Shown piece by piece: positions 14,723 to 45,445 of a stretch of 64,000 bases of DNA. The translations under genes were made by a program, and so were the position numbers. Each line of letters opens with the position of its first letter. Position 1 is the first letter of the stretch. Source of the stretch: Alloascoidea hylecoeti (lineage: Eukaryota); contig BCKZ01000003.1 of NCBI GenBank assembly GCA_001600815.1, positions 810,581 through 874,580 of the forward strand, read 5' to 3'. The notes under the pieces were generated by a model, which saw only the letters and a program-made list of their open reading frames with translations, ran no database searches and was not told the origin of the DNA.

Positions 14723-15505
14723 ATGACTGAAATCAAAAATCAAAAATTCATCCTTTACGATATTCCATCAAGTCTGGAACCTAAATTTTGGTCTCTAAAT
14801 ACTTTGAAAACAAGAATTTTGCTTAATTTTAAAGGAATTCCTTTTGAGACTAAATGGGTCCCATTCCCTGATATTCAGCAAACTTTAGAACAATTAGGCG
14901 TTACTCCCCTTCCCGGTGATGGTTCAAAAGGTCCACTCTACACTTTACCAGCTTTGACTCATGAAAATAAGACTATTATGGGATCTGATGAGATAAGAGA
15001 TTATTTGGAAAAAATTGCACCCTCGCCTACTGTTTTCCCTACAGAAAAATCGTCTGCTTTCACAAAACCAATTGCCGAATACATGTCCTCCCTCACTAAG
15101 AGCATTTTCCCAGCTATGATGGGTTTACTCCCAACCGTTCTTGGAGAACGTGATATTCAATACTTAGCTGAAACAAGAAGTAAATGGTGGGGTCTTAATC
15201 TTGCTGATTGTAAACTTTCAAAAGAATTAATGGACTCTACTAAAACTAAACTAGAAGCAGAATTAGAATCTAATTCTTTATTGGATTTAAAAAGATTAAC
15301 AAATGATAATATTGATTTTAAATTTAAATCAGGTAAATATTTATTTGGTGATGAATTATGTTATGCTGATATTCTTTTTTGTTCAACTCTATATCCTATT
15401 GAATCGCTTTTTAATTTTTACTATCAAAATTCAGATGATGATAAATTGGATTTAGACTCTTGGACTAAAGAATATTTTAAAAACATGAAGGAATTTATTG
15501 TTTAA
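14723..15505 (+). CDS. Fungal glutathione S-transferase-like protein (thioredoxin-like GST-N domain)
   Basis: LYDIPS..WSLNTLKTRILLNFKGIPFETKWVPFPDI, YTLPAL, IMGSDEIRDYLE and YLFGDELCYAD. Confidence 0.8.
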   Translation: MTEIKNQKFILYDIPSSLEPKFWSLNTLKTRILLNFKGIPFETKWVPFPDIQQTLEQLGVTPLPGDGSKGPLYTLPALTHENKTIMGSDEIRDYLEKIAPSPTVFPTEKSSAFTKPIAEYMSSLTKSIFPAMMGLLPTVLGERDIQYLAETRSKWWGLNLADCKLSKELMDSTKTKLEAELESNSLLDLKRLTNDNIDFKFKSGKYLFGDELCYADILFCSTLYPIESLFNFYYQNSDDDKLDLDSWTKEYFKNMKEFIV

Positions 15506-16514: not shown

Positions 16515-19011
16515 ATCAATATCTCACCAATATCTAAATATCCTCAATTTAAAACGACAATCAGTATGTTCGTTCTCTTTCGAGGCATTACCACTAAGTA
16601 TCATAACATGAACTGAAGTTTACTACAATAATTATAAGAACTCATTTGGATGCTCATTGAGTTGAATACCTGTGGCCCAAATTTTTCTCCATGGGCCTAT
16701 AAGATACACAATTGGGTAGTTCAGATAAGTATTACTTAAATATATATCCCTAAAACCATTAATAAAACCAATTCAATTATAGAAGTATCCCAGGCTAAAG
16801 GCCGATAAAATAGGTCTAGAAGAATAATTATACGCTGATTCACAAAATACACATCTGCGATACGCTAATCCTCCTGAGTAGACTTAAACGGATTTTACAC
16901 TGCGCTTCCGCTCATTTTCCAAATATTATCAATCCTGATCATTATGGCAGACACTGGTACTGCTTTTTTACGAAGACATACATCATCTTTATAACCTGCG
17001 ATTGACATTATAAGGCCTTGCAGGAGTTAGCCTATCGGGGCATATAGGCGCTAACTTCTTCCACACACATAAAAGCTCATAGTCTATGTTCTGGAGCTTA
17101 AGGTTCGACGTATTGGGCAGCTTTTTATCTAAAACGGGCATATTTACGTTCAGATTTTAATGGTATATTACAGGTTTACGACAATACTTCATGCTATCCA
17201 TAATCTTTGTTCCACCACAACTCAGATTAGGGATGCAAAAATCAGTGTTGCAACAAGTACAAATAACCATATAAATATCCCTAAAACCTTTAATAGAACT
17301 GAACTAATTCAATTTCATAAATATTCTCTCTTATTCTTATGTTATTTTTCCACAATTGTAAATTTAGGTCCCTTAGGCCTAAATATTCTAGATCAATTTT
17401 CTCTTTACTTTGGAATACTATAGATAATTCATGGCTGCCAAAACTATCTGGAATCAATGATGTAAAAATTCGAAATTTAATATTTACACGTAATTGCTCT
17501 GTTAACAATAAGCTTACAGAAACAGAAACAGTCAAATTAAGTAACAAACGTCTTAAATTTCTTAGTGATCCTATTCTTAATCATTTAGCAACATTACTTA
17601 TACAATTATCTGCAAACCAACAGGCAAAAGATGAACTTTATGCATTATATACTCCAACTTACAAAACCATCGGTGAAAAAGATACTGACACAGGAAAAGT
17701 TTTTGAAGTAGGTGTTTATATTGAAAATGAATGTTTTGGTACAGGAAAAGGAACAAATCTAAAAGAAGCTAGATTATCAGCGACAGAGCAAGCCCTAAAG
17801 AATCTTGAAGTATTAAATAAGTATACTGCATTTTCAACAAATCAAACTAAATCTGTTGCAAACAAAAAAGGAAAACTTTCAAAGCAAATTAGACAGACAG
17901 ATGCACCAATACCTTTGGCTACTGAATTGTATGCAAAGAGTAATATTAATAATATATTAGGAAAGTACAATTTAACAGCAAAATATTCTTGCCTTACACC
18001 AATTAATTCACCGGTGAAGAGAATGATGTTAACAGCAAATGGTTTAACTTTAGGTATTGGTGAAGCTGACAGCAAAATAAAGGGAGAACGAAAAGCAGCA
18101 ATGAATGCTTTGAATAATAAAAATATGCTAGAATCTTTGTGCACTATTTATACCACAAAAAAATGATTTTCTTTTTTCTTGTTTTAATTCTTTGAATATT
18201 GAAAAGTATATTGTAATTAATATTGATGATGTAGGTAAATAGTTACGTATATATTCAAATTGATCTTTAATCACAACAAAGAGATTAATTTGTACACATT
18301 TTTTGACCATGTTTGGTCTCTTGGACAAAGGAAAATACACCGTGTTAAAAAGTTTGTTAGGCGGCTGAACTCTAAAGGATCCCATAACAAGATTGCAAAA
18401 GAGCTTTGTTATTCCCACATCTTCCTTAAGCAATGGTATAAATAAAAATCATCCAATCGTAGAGTTTAATAAAGCAAAGTAAAACGTTACATTTTGATGT
18501 AACGAGAAAATGGAGTATTATAATAAACGATTCTATATTAATAAATTCTTCGACGGATCATGATCGATATCAAAAATGTATGATCATCTGATAATTATAA
18601 TATTGAAAAGAAAAATGAGTCTGACTCTACTTATGGTCAAACTGTTGAGTTATAGACGAATTGTATCGATTAAATGAAATTATTCCTTCGGCAGATCATT
18701 GGAAATGTTATTGTAAAATATAAAGTAGAAGAGAATTTTTGCAGCGATATCATAAGCAAAACAATTTTTGTAAAACGAAAATGCATTACGTATGGCACAC
18801 GGCTTGAATTCTTGAGCAAGGACTAATATTTGGAAAATGACAGATTGATTTACACTGGGGCCTGCTATAAACGAATATGGATGTTTTTATATGTCATAGA
18901 ATATATTAGCTAGTGGTTGGAAACACTTATAGTCTTAGATGTTGGCTGAGTGTGGAGTTCTACCTCTTTGAAAACTAGTCCTAAAGTTGGAACCGTGTTG
19001 CTGAATATTAC
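16515..19011 (+). repeat. Segmental duplication copy 1 (RNase III locus plus flanks); paralogous to ~24090-27031
   Basis: Patchy identity 5' (e.g. AAATATCCTCAATTTA.AACGACAATC at ~16536 and ~24103); near-identical from ~17872 to 19011. Confidence 0.85.
17339..18166 (+). CDS. RNase III/Dicer-derived protein with a dead, mostly deleted catalytic domain and two dsRBDs
   Basis: WLPKLSGIND...SNKRLKFLSDPILN (degenerate ERLEFLGD), then dsRBD-like AKDELY...GTGKGTNLKEARLSATEQAL and GIGEADSKIKGERKAAMNAL; uninterrupted 275-aa ORF. Confidence 0.7.
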   Translation: MLFFHNCKFRSLRPKYSRSIFSLLWNTIDNSWLPKLSGINDVKIRNLIFTRNCSVNNKLTETETVKLSNKRLKFLSDPILNHLATLLIQLSANQQAKDELYALYTPTYKTIGEKDTDTGKVFEVGVYIENECFGTGKGTNLKEARLSATEQALKNLEVLNKYTAFSTNQTKSVANKKGKLSKQIRQTDAPIPLATELYAKSNINNILGKYNLTAKYSCLTPINSPVKRMMLTANGLTLGIGEADSKIKGERKAAMNALNNKNMLESLCTIYTTKK

Positions 19012-19639
19012 AAAAACCTAAAATACAAAAGACGTTATCGGAATTAGACGATTAAGTAGATTTTAATTATATTATTTATTATAAATTATATTTGTTATTA
19101 GTTTTGCAATTCGTGTTTGAAGTAAAGCACTTTGAGGCGACCGAGTAGGGGTAATGATAATGGAGGAAATAATGCGCTAGCTGATGCATGCACGAGGCTA
19201 TTAGAGGAACTTTTAGAACCGACATCCGCATTCTTTGAGACTGTTAACTATATACAGTGTAAATATGTAATGATACAGATTTATATATATGCCATAATAC
19301 ACACACCATTCACGTGTATTATTAGTTAGATCATTTTTATTGAAAATTAGTGCGATGCGGATGGCTAACTAGTGCAAGTTGACCTTGGCGTACTATTCAA
19401 TGGGATGGCATGCCCTGATGACTAATTCATACATCATATTATATATAATCCTCGGCCAAAGATTACCAGCCTATAAGGCCTTATGCTACCAGGTATATGT
19501 AGAGAAAACGCAACTGATGTTCATATCAAATATATATATATACTGAACTATATAAAGAAGTAATTTCCCTTCAAAATATATAGTATCATTATTAATAAAG
19601 CACAAAGTGCAAATGCATTCATAATTTACAAATTTAAAC

Positions 19640-20272
19640 ATGACTGAAATCAAAAATCAAAAATTCATCTTTTACGATATTCCATCAAGTCTGGAACCTA
19701 AATTTTGGTCTCTAAATACTTTGAAAACAAGAATTTTGCTTAATTTTAAAGGAATTCCTTTTGAGACTAAATGAGTCCCATTCCCTGATATTCAGCAAAC
19801 TTTAGAACAACTAGGTGTTACTCCCATTCCCGGTGATGGTTCAAAAGGTCCACTCTACACTTTACCAGTTTTGACTCATGAAAATAAGACTATTATGGGA
19901 TCTGATGAGATAAGAGATTATTTGGAAGAAATTGTTCCTTCACCTACTGTTTTCCCCACGGAAAACTCTGTTGATTGTAAACTTTCAAAAGAATTAATGG
20001 ACTCTACTAAAACTAAACTAGAAGCAGAGTTGGAATCTAATTCTTTATTGGATTTAAAAGGATTAACAAATGATAATATTGATTTTAAATTTAAATCAGG
20101 TAAATATTTATTTGGTGATGAATTATGTTATGCTGATATTTATTTTGTTGCAACTTTATATCCTATTGAATCACTCTTTAATTTTTACTATCACGACTTA
20201 GATGATGATAAATTGGAATTAGATTCTTGGACTAAAGAGTATTTTAAAAATATGAAGGAATTTATTGCTTAA
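19640..20272 (+). pseudogene. Pseudogene copy of the GST-like gene at 14723
   Basis: Near-identical including promoter (from ~19508); TGG>TGA stop at 19772-19774; 633 bp versus 783 bp because of a 150-bp internal deletion. Confidence 0.9.
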
Positions 20273-20569
20273 TTTACATCTATAAGTTTATATATCCACT
20301 TAAATAAATAAAAGGCACGGTGAAATGTATAGGCTTAAAAGAATTCCTTTACCGGTAAATGCATGTATATTTCTTACAATCAGTAAGTTTAAAGTAGCTG
20401 GCTAAAACTCTCAATAATTTATCAATTTGCTCTTTCTTTAATAAATCCTTATAGAAACAACTTCTTTGAATTCTGGGCTTGAATTTTATAATTAATTTGG
20501 AATATAAGTTAAAGACAGGTCCTGATCTTCTGGTATCACGGCTCATATTCGGCAATTATTATTACTTTA

Positions 20570-22030
20570 TTAAATATCAATTGAATACTTCTCTTTTCTA
20601 TCGTAATAAATATTAATACATTCATCCAAGAAGGCAAAGAGAATGTCCTGACCTATTGGAGCTGATCCTTCATCAACCACAACTTCCCCATTGACTCGTT
20701 TATTTGTAGCTTCTATAACTATAGCACTACAATTAGTTAACCGTCCTAGGCCTTTAGTTTTAACCCCATCGCGATCTTTTAAACCGCCTAAAATTGTTCT
20801 AGTTCTCACCAGTTCAGCATATACAGACATCAAAGATTCAGAAATCGTGTCATATAATTCGAAAAATTTTCTAGTCAAAGAATAACATCGTCCAAGTAGA
20901 TATATAATAGTAGATTTACCTTGTAGAGGTTTGCCCGTTTCATCAGAAAAGACGCCATTATCTCTTAACTCTTGAATATTTTCTAATTTCTTTCGGTTCC
21001 AACCCAAGTTCTTCTCCATAGTATCACATGTCAATTTACGGTCTCCAACAATTATTATACCAATAATTTTATCCCAAAAATATTTCATTTCCATTAACTG
21101 TTCGAATATTGGCTTTAATTTATCATCCATTAATTCATTATAGTTATAACTGCTTGCACAAAAATCTTGGAAAAGAATTTTGCATTCTTCATAAAGGGAG
21201 TAAATAATTTCTTTACCTTGGTGTGTATTAGTTATAGATGCTGATATTTCTTTATTTAAACGCTTTAATTCTAATTCTAGTGATTTGACTTCATTTTCTA
21301 ATGGTGTTACTCTTGCTTTTTCTTCGGGTGTTTGTAATAAGTTTAAATCTTGATTCTTTTTCTGAGAAGCCAGATACAAGGAAATTGAAGGAAGATTGAT
21401 TACTTTCTGTTTCAGGTTCAATAAAGAGTCTAAGAATGGTAATAAAGTATTATCAATATTTAATATCTTATTGTTAATTGAACTTTCGAGTGAAATTAAA
21501 CTTTCTGTACAAGTTAGATATTTGTTTACAACCAGAGGAAATATAACATCATTCTTTTTAGTCTTAGTATAATTATCAATTATAATTTTTATATTAGTTA
21601 GACTTATTTTTATTTTTATAGTTGTTTCAGTGTCATAAACCCCCTCATTTTTAATTTGATAAAGTAGCCTTTTTATTGTTGATAATTTAGAATATTGAGC
21701 GGTTGGATGATTATCCTCTCCAATAGACATAAGAATTATTGATAATAGTTGTAGAATGTCATCAAGCACTAAAATGTCCTTATCATTCATTATTAGTCTT
21801 TTTTGACACAGATTTGATTTTGATTTTGTATTATTCTGCTTCAAATTATTTTTGGATATGTTTTTGGGTTGTGTTTGTACACTTTTTATGTCTTGAATAA
21901 CTGATTCCGTTTTGTGATAATGTTCCCAAACAACACTTTTATCAACATTATAATCTGAATAAAATAAATTATAGAGACCAATTCTTATTTGGGATAATTT
22001 TTTATTTGATTTCGTTTCTTTCTCAGGCAT
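20570..22030 (-). CDS. Divergent DUF2408 / Cub1 (YPL260W)-like protein
   Basis: Repeated helical unit ending in ..R.NG.F....G..P.GQ..L..LL.EC/RCY (ELRDNGVFSDETGKPLQGKSTIIYLLGRCY; KRVNGEVVVDEGSAPIGQDILFAFLDEC) and ISESLMSVYAEL. Confidence 0.65.
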   Translation of the reverse strand: MPEKETKSNKKLSQIRIGLYNLFYSDYNVDKSVVWEHYHKTESVIQDIKSVQTQPKNISKNNLKQNNTKSKSNLCQKRLIMNDKDILVLDDILQLLSIILMSIGEDNHPTAQYSKLSTIKRLLYQIKNEGVYDTETTIKIKISLTNIKIIIDNYTKTKKNDVIFPLVVNKYLTCTESLISLESSINNKILNIDNTLLPFLDSLLNLKQKVINLPSISLYLASQKKNQDLNLLQTPEEKARVTPLENEVKSLELELKRLNKEISASITNTHQGKEIIYSLYEECKILFQDFCASSYNYNELMDDKLKPIFEQLMEMKYFWDKIIGIIIVGDRKLTCDTMEKNLGWNRKKLENIQELRDNGVFSDETGKPLQGKSTIIYLLGRCYSLTRKFFELYDTISESLMSVYAELVRTRTILGGLKDRDGVKTKGLGRLTNCSAIVIEATNKRVNGEVVVDEGSAPIGQDILFAFLDECINIYYDRKEKYSIDI

Positions 22031-22346
22031 TAGTGATAATTATAACTTGATTTTTAATTAATAAAGTGCTTCAAAGTTAAGTTTTGGTTTTGTGATCGAA
22101 TATGTAAAAAGATGAGTAGAAATTTATAGTTGATGAATATTTATACATACTACAAGATTTTAATTAATTGCAACATTTAAAAAAGTATTAATATATAACT
22201 AGTACTGCAATATCATTACAGCACACTAATTTTTCATTAATAAACATCAGATATTTTTAGAATCTTCTTATTTTTATAAACTATCCAAGTTTTTTTCATT
22301 CTCTCAATTCAAATTTCAATTGAATAATTGATCAATTGATTATACA

Positions 22347-23726
22347 ATGACTTTAACAAAAGAAAAATCTGTTTTCCATTTAGTTGTTACATCACATACA
22401 TCATCATCACCAGATGTTAATTTCAAACTTGCTATGAAGTATAAATATGATGATTCAATTGATAAAGTTAATTTATGTATTTATTCTTATCCTGATGATT
22501 TTGCTAAACCAATCGTTTTTAAAAGTATTCAATTGGCAAAAGAATTTTAATTGAAAATGATCAAAATAATAATCATGAATATTTATCAATTTCTGGATCA
22601 AGAGATGATGTTGAAAACTTAGCTTTAAAAATTGCATGTGGGATTAAGATTCTTGAAGAAGATGTGATTGATATTGAAGATGATAAGAAAGAAGGAGATG
22701 ATGATGATATTGTTATTGAGATTCCGACAAATACCATAATTGTTCAGACATAATCAGGAACTGGTGCAATTAATTTAGCTGCGTCGTTCATATCAAAATT
22801 TTATGACTTTGAATTATCAGAATCAGAACCACAATCAAATACTAATTCAGATACAAATAATAAAGCACAAGTTTATGTATCAGAACCAACATGGATAAAT
22901 CATATTCCAATATTTGAAAAGGTTGGTTTAAAAGTTGAAAAATATCCATATTATAATTCAAATTTAAAAAATGATTGAATATTTAAGAAAAATTCGAAAT
23001 AAATCAATTATTATTTTACAATTTTGTTGTCATAATTCAACTGCTATTGATCCATCACATTTACAATGGATTGAAATTTATAAATTAAATTAAAAAATTA
23101 TTTCCAATTTTTGATATTGCATTTCAAGGTTTTTCAAATTAGAGAAATCAATTTTAAAAGATTCTTGGATTATTAAATTTTTTATATCAAAAAAAAATTG
23201 ATTTTATTATGTGTCAATCAGAATTGGTTTTATTATGTGCCAATCAGAATTGGTTTTTTACATTTTATTTTAAATCTATAACAGAAAACAAAATGATTTC
23301 AAATTCTCTAAAATTTCAATTATCAAATTTAATTAAAAATGAATTTCTAAATCCTCCATCATCATTTGGAATTAAATTAATTTTAAGTTAAGTTCAAGTA
23401 TTTTAAAAAATAAAATTTTATATAAACAATGGTTAAATGATTTAGAAATAATTTTAAAAAGATTATCAACGATTAGGAATTTATTAAAAAATTGGTTATA
23501 AGATCTAGAAGAATTAAAAACACCAGGTTCATGGGATTTTTTAATAAATCAAAATGGAATGTTTTCATATATTGGATTATCTGAAGAACAAATTGAAGTA
23601 TTGATTGATAAATATCATGTTTATTTACCAATTTATGGGAAAATATCATTTGCTGGTTTAAATTCAAATAATGTTGAATATTTTGCAAGAAGAATTGATA
23701 AAGTAGTTAGAGAAATACATCATTAA
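22347..23726 (+). pseudogene. Aspartate aminotransferase (Aat2-like) pseudogene
   Basis: Fragments across frames: DKVNLCIYSYPDDFAKP, VQT*SGTGA, VYVSEPTWINH, CCHNSTAIDP, FPIFDIAFQGF, NPPSSFG, TPGSWDFLINQNGMFSYIGL, GKISFAGLNSNNVEYFA; multiple stops and frameshifts. Confidence 0.88.
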
Positions 23727-24089
23727 TTTATTTTATTCCTTAGAATTTTATACTTACAAATCACAAGTATTATAACTAATCTATTGGACTTACTAAACAA
23801 TCAATACAGCCTTAACCGTCATAATTGGCGCTTGTTTTTGAATCTTTCACATTTGGTTATCTTGACCTCCTCATCCTGATGATCACTAAGATCTTTCACA
23901 TTTTGTCCCTTATTCTTTGTTTAAAGTATTTCCATTTTGAATAGAGCGATTGTTGGAGGAAGGATTCGGGGTGTGTGTTTCGGTAGAAGGAATAAGAAGC
24001 TGAGTGATAAATATTTTGGTACTTTGTTTAGAAAAGCTAGCGCTTACACTTGCGATGTTGTAATTATAAAAGTGCACCACTCAATTGCA

Positions 24090-27031
24090 CAATATCAATA
24101 TCCAAATATCCTCAATTTAGAACGACAATCGGTATGCTCTCTTTCCAGACACTACCACTAATTATAATATGAACTGAGTTTTGTAGATATTCCCGAAGCT
24201 TACTACTATAATGATAAGAACTCATTTGAATGAATCATTACTCGTTTCATCATTGTTCAACAATCAGCCGATGAGATCAAGGACTCAACAGAAAAAATAG
24301 CATTCAATAAAGATATTCTGGAGAAGTTTGCTGGAGGATATAACTTACACCTAATATAATATCTTTGGTCTTACAATTGGGTTGAACATCCGTGGCCATA
24401 ACGAAACCATTCGTAACCCAAGACTTACTCCATATATTTATCCACCATAATATCACTACATAATATTAGCTATAGGTCTATATATTACCTAACACATATA
24501 TATATTACCTAACACATATAATAAAATCAATTTAATTATAAGCTTATAAGTATTCCTAACTAAAAGACCGATAGAATAGTTCTAGAAGCTAGGCATATAA
24601 GCTGATTCACAAATACATATCTGCAATACGTAGTACCGTTTTTCCTGAACAGACTCAAATGAATATTAACGAATAGGATTATCCATCCATATGTGGGTCA
24701 AACGCCATTGGTAACAGAGTATAAGGTTTCTTTTACCAGGATACACACCATGACTCGCCATTATAGAGGAATTAGCCTGCCACCATCACACATTCTAAGA
24801 TAGTTTGGGTTTAATTGTGTTTAAACCATCCTTATCAACTACAAGATCTTTATCAGCATTTCTCGATGTTGTAAACATATCCATAAGCATATCAAACTTA
24901 TTGGATAGATCATTGAATTTATCTTCAATTCTTTTAACATCAGATTGTCAGTTTTGAACTCTTCAAACTCCGATCTCAAATCCCCGAATTGAGGAAGTAA
25001 GCTATTAGCGGTTGCTCTACTTGAGTTACTATTATCAACCATTTTATCGTATTTACGTTTTCAGATAACTTGATTCGTTAGATGAGATATAATAAATTTT
25101 GATAAATATCGATTGATGTAATAATTAATTTTTAGATAATTTAATAAGCGTAGATTTTCCGACACATTCAGCATACATTTACATATGCTCCACCTTCTTC
25201 AACGACGTAAAGCCTCAAAGTCTGTTCTGAAGGTTCGATATTCCTGATTTGCTATTTTGTCACCAATTTATGAAGGCCTGTATTAGGCTGCTTTCTATCA
25301 AAATCAGGCATATTTCACAGTGTACATACTTTACTAGTATCTTTCATCTCTTAATGATATACTACAAGTTTACGACAATTATTCTTACTCGTCATAATCT
25401 AAGTTGTAGAGGAGTGACACTACTATATAAATACTACTAAAACCGTTAATAAAATATAATCAATTCAAATGCTTAAGCCTAAATATTTTAGATCACCTTG
25501 GAATGCTGGAGATAATTTATGGCCGCCAAAACTACCCGAAATCAAGAATGTAGAAATTCTAGATTTAGCATTTACACATAAATCCTATGTTAGTAAAGTT
25601 AATAAAGTCAAATTAAGTAATGAACGTCTTGAATTTCTTGGTGATTCTATTCTTAATCATTTAACAACATTAAATATATATCAAAGATTCCCTCATTTCG
25701 ATGAAGGTATATTAACAAGAACAAGAACAAGTATTGTTAATAATAAAACACTAATAGAATGGGCACATTTATATGGATTTGAAAATCGAATGAGATCAAA
25801 ATTATGTCTTGATAAGGGGAATTATAATACAAAAATTTATGCAGATTTAACAGAATCATATATTGGAGGATTATTTCTTGAGGATAAATCAAATCATATG
25901 ATAGAATTCAACCATGGTTAAATAAATTAATGGAGCCGTTACTTAAAACAAGTGTAACGAAAATACCGACTGTTAAAAGTATACAATCATCTACAAAATG
26001 ACAGGCAAAAAGTAAAGTTGATGCCTCGAACTCAAATGTATTAAAAAGGAAGAGTAAGCAAAGTCTATCAAAAAGTTTAAATCCTAAAGGTAAGATTAAT
26101 AAAATACAAGAAAATGAAAAAAGAAGTGAAGACAAACTTTCAAATCAAATTAGACAGACAGATGCACCAATACCTTTGGCTACTGAAATGTATGCAAAGA
26201 ATACTATTCATGGTATATTAGGAAAGTACAATTTAACAGCAGAATATTCTTGCCTTACACCAATTAATTCACCGGTGAAGAGAATGATGTTAACAGCAAA
26301 TGGTTTAATTTTAGGTATTGGTGAAGCTGACAGCAAAATAAAGGGAGAACGAAAAGCAGCAATGAATGCTTTGAATAATAAAAAAATAGCTAGAATATTT
26401 GCGCACTATTTATACCACAAAAAATGATTTTCTTTTTTCTTGTTTTAATTCTTTGAATATTGAAAAGTATATTGTAATTAATATTGATGATGTAGGTAAA
26501 AAATAGTTACATTTTGATGTAACGAGAAAATGGAGTATTATAATAAACGATTCTATATTAATAAATTCTTCGACGGATCATGATCGATATCAAAAATGTA
26601 TGATCATCTGATAATTATAATATTGAAAAGAAAAATGAGTCTGACTCTACTTATGGTCAAACTGTTGAGTTATAGACGAATTGTATCGATTAAATGAAAT
26701 TATTCCTTCGGCAGATCATTGGAAATTTTATTGTAAAATATAAAGTAGAAGAGAATTTTTGCAGCGATATCATAAGCAAAACAATTTTTGTAAAACGAAA
26801 ATGCATTACGTATGGCACACGGCTTGAATTCTTGAGCAAGGACTAATATTTGGAAAATGACAGATTGATTTACACTGGGGCCTGCTATAAACGAATATGG
26901 ATGTTTTTATATGTCATAGAATATATTAGCTAGTGGTTGGAAACACTTATAGTCTTAGATGTTGGCTGAGTGTGGAGTTCTACCTCTTTGAAAACTAGTC
27001 CTAAAGTTGGAACCGTGCTGCTGAATATTAC
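24090..27031 (+). repeat. Segmental duplication copy 2 (RNase III locus plus flanks)
   Basis: 26133-27031 is near-identical to 17872-19011 except for a 244-bp indel; both copies end at GCTGAATATTAC. Confidence 0.85.
25469..26427 (+). pseudogene. RNase III (Rnt1/Dcr1 family) gene with intact catalytic motifs, disrupted by a frameshift (~25895) and a TGA (25999)
   Basis: WPPKLPEIKN..AFTHKS, SNERLEFLGDSILN, EGILTRTRTSIVNN, KIYADLTESYIGGLF; RIQPWLNKLMEPLL and the terminal dsRBD continue in another frame. Confidence 0.85.
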
Positions 27032-34104: not shown

Positions 34105-36821
34105 TTACCAACCTTGGGTTTTCTTATCAAGAACACAATCAAGACCGATATATTGTTGATTGTTTTTTTTCTCTTCAAAAAATTCAATAACACAACATTT
34201 AACAACATCATCAAATAAATTATAAATCATCTCTTTTAGATCATCACCCGTTTGTTTGAAATCAGGATAAGAATTAACTTCTAATAAATGAACTTTCAAA
34301 TCTTCATCAATTAAAAAATCAATACCAAAAATTTCAAAAGCATTTGGTATAGTTTGAAAATGAATCATATTATTTAAAGCTGCTAAAAATAAATCTGAAG
34401 TAATTGATTTGATTTGTGTATATATTTTTTCTTTTGATTCATCTGATAAACCTTCCAATTTCCAAAATTCAAAAACATTTCCATTATGTTCATAATCATT
34501 CTCTTGTAAACAAGTATTTGTTAAATGACCTTTCATATCGATTTTACCATCAGTTTCAATTGGAGTTTCATAACTTTCATTTGAAAATAATGCAAGCATA
34601 TGCTTATAAACAAATACTTGAAGAGAACCTTTACATAAGATATAACTCCTAATATGAAATTTTCGTTTTTGATAAAAGGGTAAAAGTAATGTTTTGGTGA
34701 TATAATCCTGTATCACAAAATGGCGTAATTGAGAAGTTATAATACCATTATTATCTTCATTTTCATTTTCACTTTCATCATCATTTTCTTCTTCAAACTC
34801 TTCAAATATTGATTGAAGCTCATCAATTGTTGTAAATAATCTTATTCCTTGACCTTTATCACTCATACTCGGTTTCAATATATAAACTTTTCTTTCATTA
34901 CCTGATTTCGATTCATTCTCTTCAAGTTCTTGACGAAGTTCATAAACTTCATCTAATGCATCATCTAAAAATTCAGCATAATCTAATTCTAAAGAATAAG
35001 TATTAGGAAATGATTCTATTAATAAAGATTCTGGATGTTTCACTATAAATGAATGAATTGTATTTGCAAGAAAATGTTTCCTTATTAATGCTTTTCTATA
35101 AATATAAGAGCATATAAGATAATTTGAATCAGTCATTACTCTATCAAAATCAAAATCTTCATAATCACTAAATTGAAATAATTTCCCATTATCTGTAGTG
35201 GTGAGATTCTTAGAAGATGTAATGATTGGAATATTAGGTAAATATTTTGTAATTGATTGTTTTATTGCGGGATAAATATATGATTCTTCATCAATTGTAA
35301 TTAACGCTGTATGAGATCTAGAAGAACTATTAAAATATAACGAGAATGAAAAATTAATATTTATAATCTAGTATTGAGAACTTATCTCAAGTCCATCAAA
35401 TATATCAAATGGGTGAAAATAATAGAAGGGAAAAAAAATTATAAAAAATAGAATATATGAAAATTTGAAAACGGTACTGCTATATATTCATATATATATA
35501 ATAGAGACGATCCAAAAACTTCGAATTCCTATAAATAATTCCAAATATCCCACCCGCCCATTTCACAAGAACAACAATTTGCAAGTCAAAAAACATATCG
35601 AGATTGAACTTACCTTTTATCATCAGCTTCCTCAATATATTCATTAGTAGAGACTTGCTTTATAGCTTCACGATGACCATTGATTGCTGTTTCTGATTTA
35701 GGTATCTTAATGTTAATTTGTTCACGTAAAGGAAGATCCTTAAACGTGGCCTTCATGGGAGTAACACTATCCAATTCCAATGATATTAGTAAAATAGATC
35801 AAAGTTCTATATATAAATTTAACAAATACACACCTAACGTATCCTTCTTGAACGGTCCAGCCATCGTTGCCTGGTTCACTGACAGCAACAGAGTCGTGAA
35901 CAACACTAAAATCAGGAGACCAATGGAATTGAACTTTTTTAGCTTCACTAGAATCAACAATATCGGCCTTATTTTCTGGGTCTCTTTCTGGAAGTTCACC
36001 ATTGAAACTATAGGTACTACCCCATCGATTTTGTAAAATTGGAGCATAGAATATTTTTGTTTCATCGTTTAATTCTCTTGTTAATGGAATATTAACACTA
36101 TATAAATCAACACTTTTATCACTGGGCCAATTTTCATATAAATGTTTTATTGTAAAAACAGCGATCTTTGCAGCTTGATCTAATACATCAGGTTCAATGG
36201 TACGTGTGTTAAAAGCAAACGATAGTCCAATTGCCTTTTTATCGGATAATGCTGCTTCAAGTGCTGCACCAACAGTACCACTAGACATAATATAAGTAGC
36301 AGTTGAATTTCTACCATAATTTGGTCCCGATATAACTAAATCCACAGGTCCTTTATTAGGAAATAAATGATGAATTCCAATATCTGCTGCTGATGCTGGT
36401 GTACCATCAATAAGAGCCCATTCTTCTTTGGTATCATCATAATGATGTTTAGGTTGAGCATATGGACCATCATAAGAATTATTTTGAAGATTGGGTTTTA
36501 TAAAAGAAGCTGTTAAGTCCTTTCCTGCAAAGTGCGCTTTCCCAATCCAAGACCTAATAAATAACACAATTAGAAAGTTATATCAACAAAATTTGTAGAT
36601 AACAATAAATCTTGGCATACCTTTGCTGATCTGGTAGGCAAACGCTAAGGTCCCAGTTTGTATACTTTCTAATAGCATTTACAAAATAAATGATGTACGG
36701 AGATGTTTCGTCACTTGGAGGACCATCATCATTAGTTAACTATGACAATCGATAAATGGTTAGAACAATAATATTTTACAATTATTGATAAATATCGAAG
36801 AAAACATACTAAAACGTGCAT
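34105..36821 (-). CDS. PBY1: SurE / tubulin-tyrosine-ligase-like fusion protein Pby1, multi-exon
   Basis: MHVL|LTNDDGPP..SWIGKAH..SGPNYGRN..SSGTVGAA (SurE) joins in frame across an ~285-nt intron (35613 to ~35330) to ILKPSMSDKGQGIR..KFHIR..FGIDFL..LLEVNSYPDF (TTL). Confidence 0.85.
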
Positions 36822-43981: not shown

Positions 43982-45445
43982 TCAGCGCAATTCAATATCA
44001 TAAAGTTCAGTTAATTGCTTCCTAACAATTTCTTGTAGTACATTAATTTCATCATTTGTCAAATTTCGTTCCATAGATCTATAGGATATTCTATAGCATT
44101 GACTTTTTCTTCCAGTCTTTGGATTTATAAATTCATCATGAAGAGAAACGGTTTCTACCATATCTCCAGCTGTATTTCTAACCAATTCCATTAAATCGTT
44201 TTCATGTAATACATTTTCTGTACTCTTAGGTAGCCAAAATGAAACGTCACGAATTGTATTTGGATATTTTGAAAATGATTTGAAATTTGTAACTTCACCT
44301 GCTTTAAATTGAGAACCAAAACGATCATCTTTAGACCAGAATAACCTTATATCAGGAATACCAAATAATACCATGGCAAGTCGATCCAATCCTATACCTA
44401 AAGCCCAGGAAATATAATCCGAAACTCCGGACCCGTCAAGAACTTGCTGCTGAACAAGGCCACACCCACAACATTCTAACCAATCTCCTTTCCACCAAAC
44501 TTCAATCTCCCAACTTGGGGCTGTCCAAGGAAAATAAGCTTCAATCCATCTTATTTTCAATGGTTTGAAAAGATCAGGATCTGTACTACCTGCTTTTATG
44601 GCGGCTTGTTTGGCAAGATTGAAAATATCGTTAACCATCAATTCAATAGTACGTTTTAAATGTTGACTAACTACTTCCACTTCTTCATTAGACATGTGTG
44701 ATTGTTTAGGGTTTGTTTCGGGATTATAAGGAGGATCTTCAACAATAAGATCAGTTTTAGCGATTTTTTTAATATCATTGGCGATTACATTTATAAGATT
44801 ATCACCATGTTCTTTTCTTGACCATGATCTAGCACCTTCCAATTGATGAAATCCTGGATAATGAGTTCTATCAATAGCATCCCGACGATATACATCAGCC
44901 ACAATAAAGTACCCAGGGGTTTTACATTTTTGAAAACATTCATGTTCATGAGCAGAAGTATGGGTTCGTAACAAAGTATCATGGTTAACATAATAAGTAT
45001 CTGTCTTGCTACGACCTGGATGATCTTCTGGAAATCCCAAGACATCAAAGTTTTCATACTTAGAAACTACTGGTTCAAAATCATTATAAAATGTGTATTC
45101 AGGTCCAGCGAATCTGTGCTCAATTAAGGATTTTATAATCCCAATTGGATGATCTGGGTTCTTGTGAAGCTTTCTCTCCGTCAATCCAATAATTGTAGGT
45201 GTAACATTGGTCCATTCATCAGTTGGATACTCTTTATCCAAAATTTTAACAGTTTTATCTACAAAATAGTGTTAGAAAAAGGTGATGAAAGGTTTATATT
45301 GATTTAGAAATGGCTTCAAATTCATACTCTTAGTGGCAATGAATCTCCGGTGATAAGCGATTATTGACGAGGTCTTCAACAAAGGGGAGCATTTCGGTAA
45401 TACCCTCGGAAGAGTTGTGTTCAATCTTGAAAGCGTTCTTAGCAT
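43982..45445 (-). CDS. MSF1: Mitochondrial phenylalanyl-tRNA synthetase, 2 exons
   Basis: HPGRSKTDTYY, LLRTHTSAH, YRRDAIDRTHYPGFHQ, YFPWTAPSWE, FDX-ACB C-terminus; presequence exon from ATG 45445; intron ~45327-45259. Confidence 0.92.

Follow-up and report, generated by a model that had tools for sequence, protein, structure and literature searches.

The RNase III genes RNT1, DCR1 and CDL1 of budding yeasts are a textbook example of duplication, loss, subfunctionalisation and inactivation (PMC3579876). As set out in the passages of that paper drawn on here, a second C-terminal domain for binding double-stranded RNA (dsRBD) separates Dcr1 from Rnt1, and the nuclease domain of Candida albicans CaDcr1 lies slightly nearer to that of Rnt1 (PMC3579876). 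CaDcr1 (PMC3579876) and the Dicer of Pichia stipitis (PDB 7dey) are built from an N-terminal domain, one RNase III domain and two dsRBDs. The portion of PMC12663654 used here treats canonical fungal Dicers and holds nothing on derivatives such as those described below. The present analysis concerns a stretch of 64,000 nucleotides (nt) from Alloascoidea hylecoeti (assembly GCA_001600815.1, contig BCKZ01000003.1, positions 810,581 to 874,580 of the forward strand), referred to as the window, with positions counted from its first letter. It contains two truncated relatives of these genes, copy A at 17339-18166 and copy B from 25469 onwards. They are probably, though by no means surely, lineage-specific partial duplicates of the organism's own Dcr1/Rnt1-type gene that are now decaying, and not the two parts of a split enzyme.

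The intact relatives of the two copies were identified by a length-relaxed protein search with the first open reading frame (ORF) of copy B, in which 258 of the 416 candidates matched at E <= 0.001. The best two matches were P0002 (338 amino acids (aa), 81% identity) and P0003 (654 aa, 77%); the remaining matches listed reached at most 48% and were Rnt1-type yeast or fungal proteins or remoter RNase III proteins. P0003 carries the N-terminal domain RNase_3_N, RNase III with its signature intact and two dsrm stretches, and it is colinear with both copies. An ancestor with RNase III and two dsRBDs, as the original prediction had proposed, is borne out by this architecture. The source of P0003 and its similarity to the copies suggest that it belongs to the same genome as the window. 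On the P0003 map obtained with tblastn, copy A covers residues 243-315 and 415-653 and is missing 316-414, copy B covers residues 251-429 and 509-654 and is missing 430-508, and the two deletions are therefore reciprocal. Residues 1-242 of P0003, which hold the N-terminal domain, gave no tblastn match in the window, so that both copies are without it. The earlier account of the lesions, made from the window alone, was right about the reciprocal deletions and overlooked two things, namely this loss of about 250 N-terminal residues in both copies and a +1/-1 stretch in copy B.

Copy A has kept both dsRBDs in an open frame and has lost the nuclease core. Its parts are as follows.

17339..18166, plus strand: copy A, an open ATG-to-stop ORF of 275 aa (ORF, Pfam and tblastn)
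17339-17413, plus strand: leader of copy A
17414-17602, plus strand: N-terminal remnant of the RNase III domain of copy A
17543-17572, plus strand: mutated signature NKRLKFLSDP of copy A
17599..17602, plus strand: junction of the core deletion of copy A, with a 4-nt microhomology, TATA (overlapping blastn segment pairs)
~17618-17839, plus strand: dsRBD1 of copy A, followed by a linker
~17921-18163, plus strand: dsRBD2 of copy A

In a Pfam scan, copy A matched dsrm over two stretches (E 3e-15) and the RNase III domain not at all; its signature is NKRLKFLSDP, compared to NERLEFLGDS in copy B and in the parent. The core deletion measures 300 nt in ancestral terms, is in-frame and removes the RNase III core; the blastn segment pairs on its two sides (17372-17602 with 25472-25678, and 17599-17643 with 25980-26024) overlap at the junction. 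As such, the ORF, Pfam and blastn results agree with the 275-aa ORF, the mutated signature, the loss of roughly 300 nt and the two dsRBDs first described from the letters alone. The ORF of copy A begins 25 codons 5' of a conserved DNSWPPKL stretch, and that of copy B 11 codons 5' of it. AlphaFold2, run on copy A with an 85-sequence alignment, returned predicted local distance difference test (pLDDT) scores above 90 for both dsRBDs (residues ~100-165 and 195-275) and below 50 for residues 1-29. The predicted product consists of a disordered leader and two dsRBD folds with a flexible linker, has no catalytic domain, and would be unable to cut RNA.

Copy B has kept the catalytic residues and has been disrupted at several points, as the following features indicate.

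25469..25921, plus strand: first ORF of copy B, 150 aa, with the RNase III domain (PF00636, 9.1e-18; PF14622, 9.5e-19)
25886..25896, plus strand: 5-nt tandem duplication AAATC AAATC in copy B, a frameshift (read from the sequence)
25999..26001, plus strand: TGA nonsense codon of copy B, where the parent has arginine
26010..26011, plus strand: junction of the dsRBD1 deletion of copy B, parent residues ~430-508 gone (tblastn and alignment by eye)
26188..26427, plus strand: dsRBD2 remnant of copy B, a 79-aa ORF (dsrm, 9.9e-6)

The signature NERLEFLGDS of copy B is intact at 25619-25648, and the stretch ...YADLTESYIGG is also present. The first ORF ends in nine frame-shifted residues, and skipping 5 nt brings back ...EDKSYDRIQPWLNKLMEPLL, as in the parent. 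Further downstream, comparison with copy A reveals a +1/-1 pair of indels, both changes in the length of an A-run, which garbles about 12 codons at 26381-26419. In total, copy B carries four disabling lesions; its nuclease ORF is cut ahead of the RNase III domain's last helix, and its dsRBD2 is out of frame with its nuclease. Pfam and the DNA are here in accord with the original prediction, which had described the catalytic set in a 150-aa ORF, the absence of dsRBD1 and a dsRBD2 cut off by a frameshift and a stop, and the domain scan that it had suggested recovered PF00636 in copy B and dsrm both in copy A and in the copy B remnant, at the E-values given above. Splicing was considered as a cause of the frame breaks and rejected, as neither copy contains a GTATGT, GTAAGT, GTACGT or TACTAAC-type motif; the sole match to the seven intron-motif patterns searched was GCTAAC at 17050, upstream of copy A.

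The lesions and deletions could also be errors or repeat collapses of the assembly, as two of the copy B indels are changes in A-run length and the region is rich in repeats, where short contigs break. However, the 150-aa and 79-aa ORFs of copy B, shifted tail and garbled C-terminus included, recur without a single changed letter in another assembly, on NCBI contigs of 2289 and 748 nt, and that assembly has a different copy A allele. Because the truncated ORFs recur identically there, the lesions of copy B are real, and the assembly errors that had been named at the outset as a possible undoing of the whole idea do not account for them. Moreover, three sequencing runs from three studies contain 81-92% of the window's sampled words, and none of the differences listed for their contigs falls at the lesions of copy B. 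Chiefly on account of the identical ORFs, an assembly artefact is a negligible prospect. The RNase III domain of copy B is 85-87% identical to that of P0003, and that of the intact P0002 is 82-89% identical to it; since copy B is as near to P0003 as P0002 is, its death must be recent. Judged by its sequence, copy B is a pseudogene of the unprocessed type, carrying disabling lesions relative to intact paralogues and lying within a duplicated segment.

In P0002, the RNase III domain keeps every catalytic residue, dsRBD2 is the one dsRBD, dsRBD1 is absent and the N-terminal 55 residues are novel. The protein may be an active enzyme and a natural domain-deletion variant. Logan contigs from the three DNA runs (X1, X3 and X4, each from a different study) were aligned to the window, and in each run the substitutions 25697 T>G (F77V), 25719 G>A (R84K) and 25727 A>T (T87S) stand together on one contig. 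As the residues so encoded are exactly those of P0002, this protein comes from a paralogue within the organism itself. The N-terminal 60 residues of P0002 had no significant match in the window (best E 0.59), and a likeness of its N-terminus to a minus-strand ORF at 24839-25042 was likewise discarded as not significant (E 1.1). Copy B and P0002 share the absence of dsRBD1 and a deletion of 5 residues, neither of which is found in copy A; copies A and B have in common indels in dsRBD2 that P0002 does not have. These indel patterns fit an old split of copy A from copy B and P0002, followed by conversion of the 3' parts between the two neighbours.

A further protein, P0001 (277 aa), is 94% identical to copy A, with its first 170 residues the same, and comes from a second assembly in which the exact protein of copy A is absent. 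At the copy A locus, run X4 has a 9-nt insertion in addition to 17849 A>G and 17884 G>T; these are the variants of P0001, which is therefore an open allele of copy A. P0162 (696 aa) has an N-terminal domain, RNase III and two dsRBDs; its signature reads NEKLRFVGSA, D has changed to G in its second motif, and its identity to P0003 is 30%. It is probably a full-length paralogue of this organism that has lost catalysis. It was rejected as the parent of copy A, to which it is 36% identical over matched stretches compared to 54-59% for P0003 (tblastn), and the substitutions in its signature differ. Within the retained domains, copy A is 68-77% identical to P0003. Metagenome scans with P0003 and one alignment as queries found no relative. 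The RNase III family here appears to comprise five loci, those of P0003, P0162, P0002, copy A and copy B.

In comparisons of P0003 with solved structures, the highest score was obtained with Saccharomyces cerevisiae Rnt1 (190 bits, over RNase III and dsRBD1), followed by the Pichia stipitis Dicer 7dey (164) and K. polysporus Dcr1 (118). Two dsRBD stretches were found in 9 of the 26 scanned homologues, and the named ones among these nine all come from CUG-clade yeasts; the named Saccharomycetaceae Rnt1 proteins (7 of the 26) have one dsRBD each. Because it combines two dsRBDs with an RNase III domain nearer to Rnt1, the parent is assigned to the CaDcr1-like 'RNT1/DCR1' type and not to the Saccharomycetaceae Dcr1 type. 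P0003 has the full architecture of CaDcr1 and the Pichia stipitis Dicer. Compared to this type, copies A and B are both without the N-terminal domain, copy A is without the nuclease core, and copy B is without dsRBD1 and disrupted. S. cerevisiae Rnt1 (PDB 5t16, 4oog) is the best sequence match of P0003 and has the dsRBD1 tail ...KY.A.R....ESV in common with it, but it has one dsRBD where the parent type has two, and copies A and B are truncated. Regarding the features of the Dcr1 type, a single RNase III domain with an intact signature is found in P0003 and P0002 and in neither A nor B, where the signature is mutated and the domain cut short, respectively. As regards the second C-terminal dsRBD, copy A and P0003 have both dsRBDs, and copy B has dsRBD2 only, out of frame with its nuclease; the N-terminal dimerisation domain RNase_3_N is absent from A and B. 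Cdl1 (Candida Dicer-like 1), a dead full-length paralogue, resembles copy A in that the metal-binding signature of copy A is also changed (E to K twice, G to S). However, Cdl1 and P0162 have all their domains, while copy A is without the core and the N-terminal domain. The inactivation of copy A reads as independent of, and younger than, that of P0162.

The reciprocal deletions had been read as a possible split Dicer. In such a pair, the dsRBD protein from copy A would lend RNA binding to a nuclease without dsRBD1, either the 150-aa product of copy B or P0002. The first helices of RNase III contribute part of the dimer interface, and copy A keeps them, while P0002 provides an intact nuclease with the architecture of copy B. 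Furthermore, the best Foldseek matches of the copy A model were Loqs-PB (8dfv_K, E 1.6e-7) and TARBP2 (7zpk_C, E 1.8e-7), with TRBP, DRB4 and R2D2 among the other top matches. The TM-scores of these matches are low (0.19-0.25), as the two domains can move freely, and they reflect the common tandem-dsRBD architecture only. Like the tandem-dsRBD Dicer partners Loquacious, TRBP, R2D2 and DRB4, copy A is predicted to have two dsRBD folds and no catalytic domain, but it has no descent in common with them beyond the dsRBD fold, being derived from a nuclease gene, and it is without several family-conserved residues of dsRBD1. Copy B, for its part, is broken in four places and its ORF is without the last helix of the domain, and the N-terminal domain is missing from both copies. 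There would also be nothing to complement, as a full-length parent type with both dsRBDs exists. With copy B a pseudogene, P0003 and P0002 intact and the ratio of nonsynonymous to synonymous change (dN/dS) between A and B at least 1, the split Dicer is abandoned here as very improbable.

The state of copy A itself is more difficult to judge. Both copies could be plain pseudogenes, with copy A dead since its core deletion or earlier, free of stops and frameshifts by chance and in part because conversion from B-type copies keeps renewing its 3' part. This is a serious alternative, although we give it somewhat less than an even chance. Its neighbours in the same duplicated block, copy B and the second GST-like copy described below, are pseudogenes, and dN/dS is at least 1 in both segments compared between A and B. 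However, the RNase III remnant has 56 aligned positions, at 32 of which A and B agree, and 16 changes fall on the A branch and 5 on the B branch, with 3 ambiguous; copy B has four disabling lesions and no excess divergence, and copy A has none despite its longer branch. In a neutral simulation (4000 copies, substitutions only), the 275-codon frame remained open in 6.7%, 0.6% and 0.1% of copies at 0.05, 0.1 and 0.15 substitutions per site. With the converted 3' part set aside, 178 codons are left, for which extrapolation gives about 1-4% of copies still open at the A-branch divergence of 0.1-0.2 per site, with indels uncounted. In addition, all indels seen in copy A are multiples of 3, and its second allele, P0001, is also open. 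It is thus unlikely that the frame of copy A would have stayed open under pure neutrality.

Several observations weigh on the other side, and also against the preferred reading of decaying partial duplicates in so far as it leaves room for a copy A that is still maintained. The differences between A and B give no positive sign of purifying selection on copy A: the 5' segment has 33 nonsynonymous and 5 synonymous differences (omega ~2), and dsRBD2 has 10 and 0. Among columns that are at least 80% conserved in 81 homologues from other species, those in the RNase III remnant are kept at 14 of 26 in copy A, compared to 21 of 25 in copy B, 21 of 25 in P0002 and 24 of 26 in P0003. In dsRBD1, copy A keeps 15 of 23, with 3 more deleted, and P0003 keeps 23 of 26. 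The dead remnant and dsRBD1 of copy A are therefore conserved alike (Fisher p = 0.56), so that dsRBD1 loses family-conserved residues as often as the remnant does, and it also has a 5-residue deletion after helix 1. The proposal that dsRBD1 of copy A is better conserved than the remnant, suggested by whole-segment identities of 77% and 68%, was rejected on the same conserved-column comparison. The in-frame deletions of copy A prove little by themselves, because the dead GST copy also has a deletion that is a multiple of 3, and the 3' third of copy A may be open only through refreshment by gene conversion. Relatives of copy A outside the species were not found, either among 625 candidates (1 match) or in an exhaustive search. 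The exhaustive search gave 107 matches at E <= 0.001 and 11 at <= 1e-10, with identities to other species of at most ~47% over the matched stretches, and both dsRBDs aligned colinearly with several 500-aa yeast RNase III proteins. Lastly, the residence of both P0003 and P0162 in the genome of the window is itself something that we infer.

An open frame with omega of at least 1 fits a fast-evolving gene and a lucky relic alike, and the chances that copy A encodes a fast-evolving tandem-dsRBD protein that binds double-stranded RNA (dsRNA), or is an unbroken relic, appear about even. One metatranscriptome (X8) contributed 0 contigs over the window, which favours neither side. A more specific possibility is that copy A is a working tandem-dsRBD gene, born by excision of the core from a Dicer-type nuclease, kept by selection while evolving fast, and acting on dsRNA with or against P0003 and P0002. 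This is considered unlikely; if it were so, the product could, by analogy, be either a helper similar to Loqs or R2D2 or a competitor that shields dsRNA. Of the two outcomes first offered for the pair, complementary subfunctionalisation or independent decay, it is decay that fits better.

Decay of partial duplicates, the preferred explanation, also accommodates the organisation of the locus. Copies A and B each lie within one unit of a tandem segmental duplication, whose other parts are listed here.

14723..15505, plus strand: intact GST-like gene, 260 aa, first gene of unit 1 (Pfam GST_N_2 and GST_C_7)
16528..17338, plus strand: upstream region of copy A (blastn patches, 73-78% identity to 24096-25476)
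18240..18485, no strand assigned: 246-nt stretch found only in the 3' flank of copy A, without a counterpart at copy B (pairwise alignment)
18486..19011, no strand assigned: 526-nt repeat downstream of copy A, 99.6% identical to 26506-27031
19537..20276, plus strand: second GST-like copy, a pseudogene (alignment and translation)
20570..22030, minus strand: DUF2408 gene, 486 aa, in unit 2 only, between the GST copy and copy B (Pfam PF10303, E 1.7e-12)
24096..25468, plus strand: upstream region of copy B, in patches homologous to the upstream region of copy A
26506..27031, no strand assigned: 526-nt repeat downstream of copy B, 99.6% identical to 18486-19011

Unit 1 runs from the intact GST-like gene through a spacer of about 1 kb, the common upstream region and copy A to the 526-nt repeat; unit 2 runs from the GST-like copy through the DUF2408 gene, the common upstream region and copy B to the second 526-nt repeat. 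The GST-like pair is a tandem duplicate with 92-94% nt identity, and its second member carries a TGG>TGA nonsense mutation and a 153-nt in-frame internal deletion. TATA-like boxes occupy aligned positions in the two upstream regions, TATAAATA at 17270-17277 (69 nt 5' of the copy A ATG) and TATATAAATA at 25424-25433 (45 nt 5' of the copy B ATG). From 5' to 3', nt identity between copies A and B rises from 75-78% in the 5' part to 96% across dsRBD2 and 99.6% downstream, and later gene conversion is proposed because of this gradient.

We infer the following order of events. A copy without the N-terminal part of about 250 residues would have arisen first and then been duplicated in tandem along with the GST-like gene. 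The nuclease core would have been lost in the A lineage, and the B lineage would have lost dsRBD1 and seeded a further intact copy elsewhere, P0002. More recently, copy B would have been killed by the frameshift, the nonsense codon and two homopolymer indels, and gene conversion would have homogenised the 3' parts of A and B. Overall, deletions at microhomologies, point lesions and gene conversion in patches would be wearing the segment down.

Whatever the state of copy A, the organism appears, from these sequences, to hold an unusually rich set of RNase III forms: an active full-length enzyme with two dsRBDs (P0003), a dead full-length paralogue (P0162), an intact mini form of RNase III and dsRBD2 alone (P0002), a dsRBD-only derivative (copy A) and a fresh pseudogene (copy B). 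With such natural domain-deletion variants, the separate contributions of the N-terminal domain, dsRBD1 and dsRBD2 could be studied. If copy A is expressed, it would show a route from a nuclease gene to a dsRNA-binding cofactor, and if the working-gene reading is true, nature would here have made a Dicer cofactor out of Dicer itself. If copy A is not expressed, the locus consists of ordinary decaying segmental duplicates.

The flanks of the two copies contain further elements. The 526-nt repeat starts with a perfect palindrome, GTTACAT tttg ATGTAAC; within it, the summed contig depth at 18605-18925 is about 4x flank in the three runs, loose ends appear at 18665 and 18701, and the element is probably a dispersed repeat. 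Similarly, 25025-25345, 5' of copy B, has a summed depth of about 5x flank with loose ends at 25035, 25060, 25073, 25130 and 25164 in the three runs, which suggests another dispersed repeat. The 246-nt stretch at 18240-18485 has GTTAC at both borders and could have been inserted there, with duplication of a 5-bp target. Part of the DUF2408 gene (21173-21814) has a contig depth of about 3x flank, and the gene may therefore have paralogues elsewhere.

The window has a G+C content of 30% and the gene set of an ordinary budding yeast, including OPI1, NMD2/UPF2, SPC2, CYB2, NTE1 and a MET17-like gene, among others. Rfam and tRNA scans gave no match in the region or in the window as a whole. Two other frames in the window are unusual. 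The mitochondrial PheRS-like frame at 43982-45271 (minus strand) is open over 429 codons and yields only 237 aa from its first ATG, and the PBY1-like gene at 34105-36582 (minus strand) has its TTL and SurE halves in one open frame each, with about 400 nt between them; introns, lesions or real splits may lie behind these oddities.

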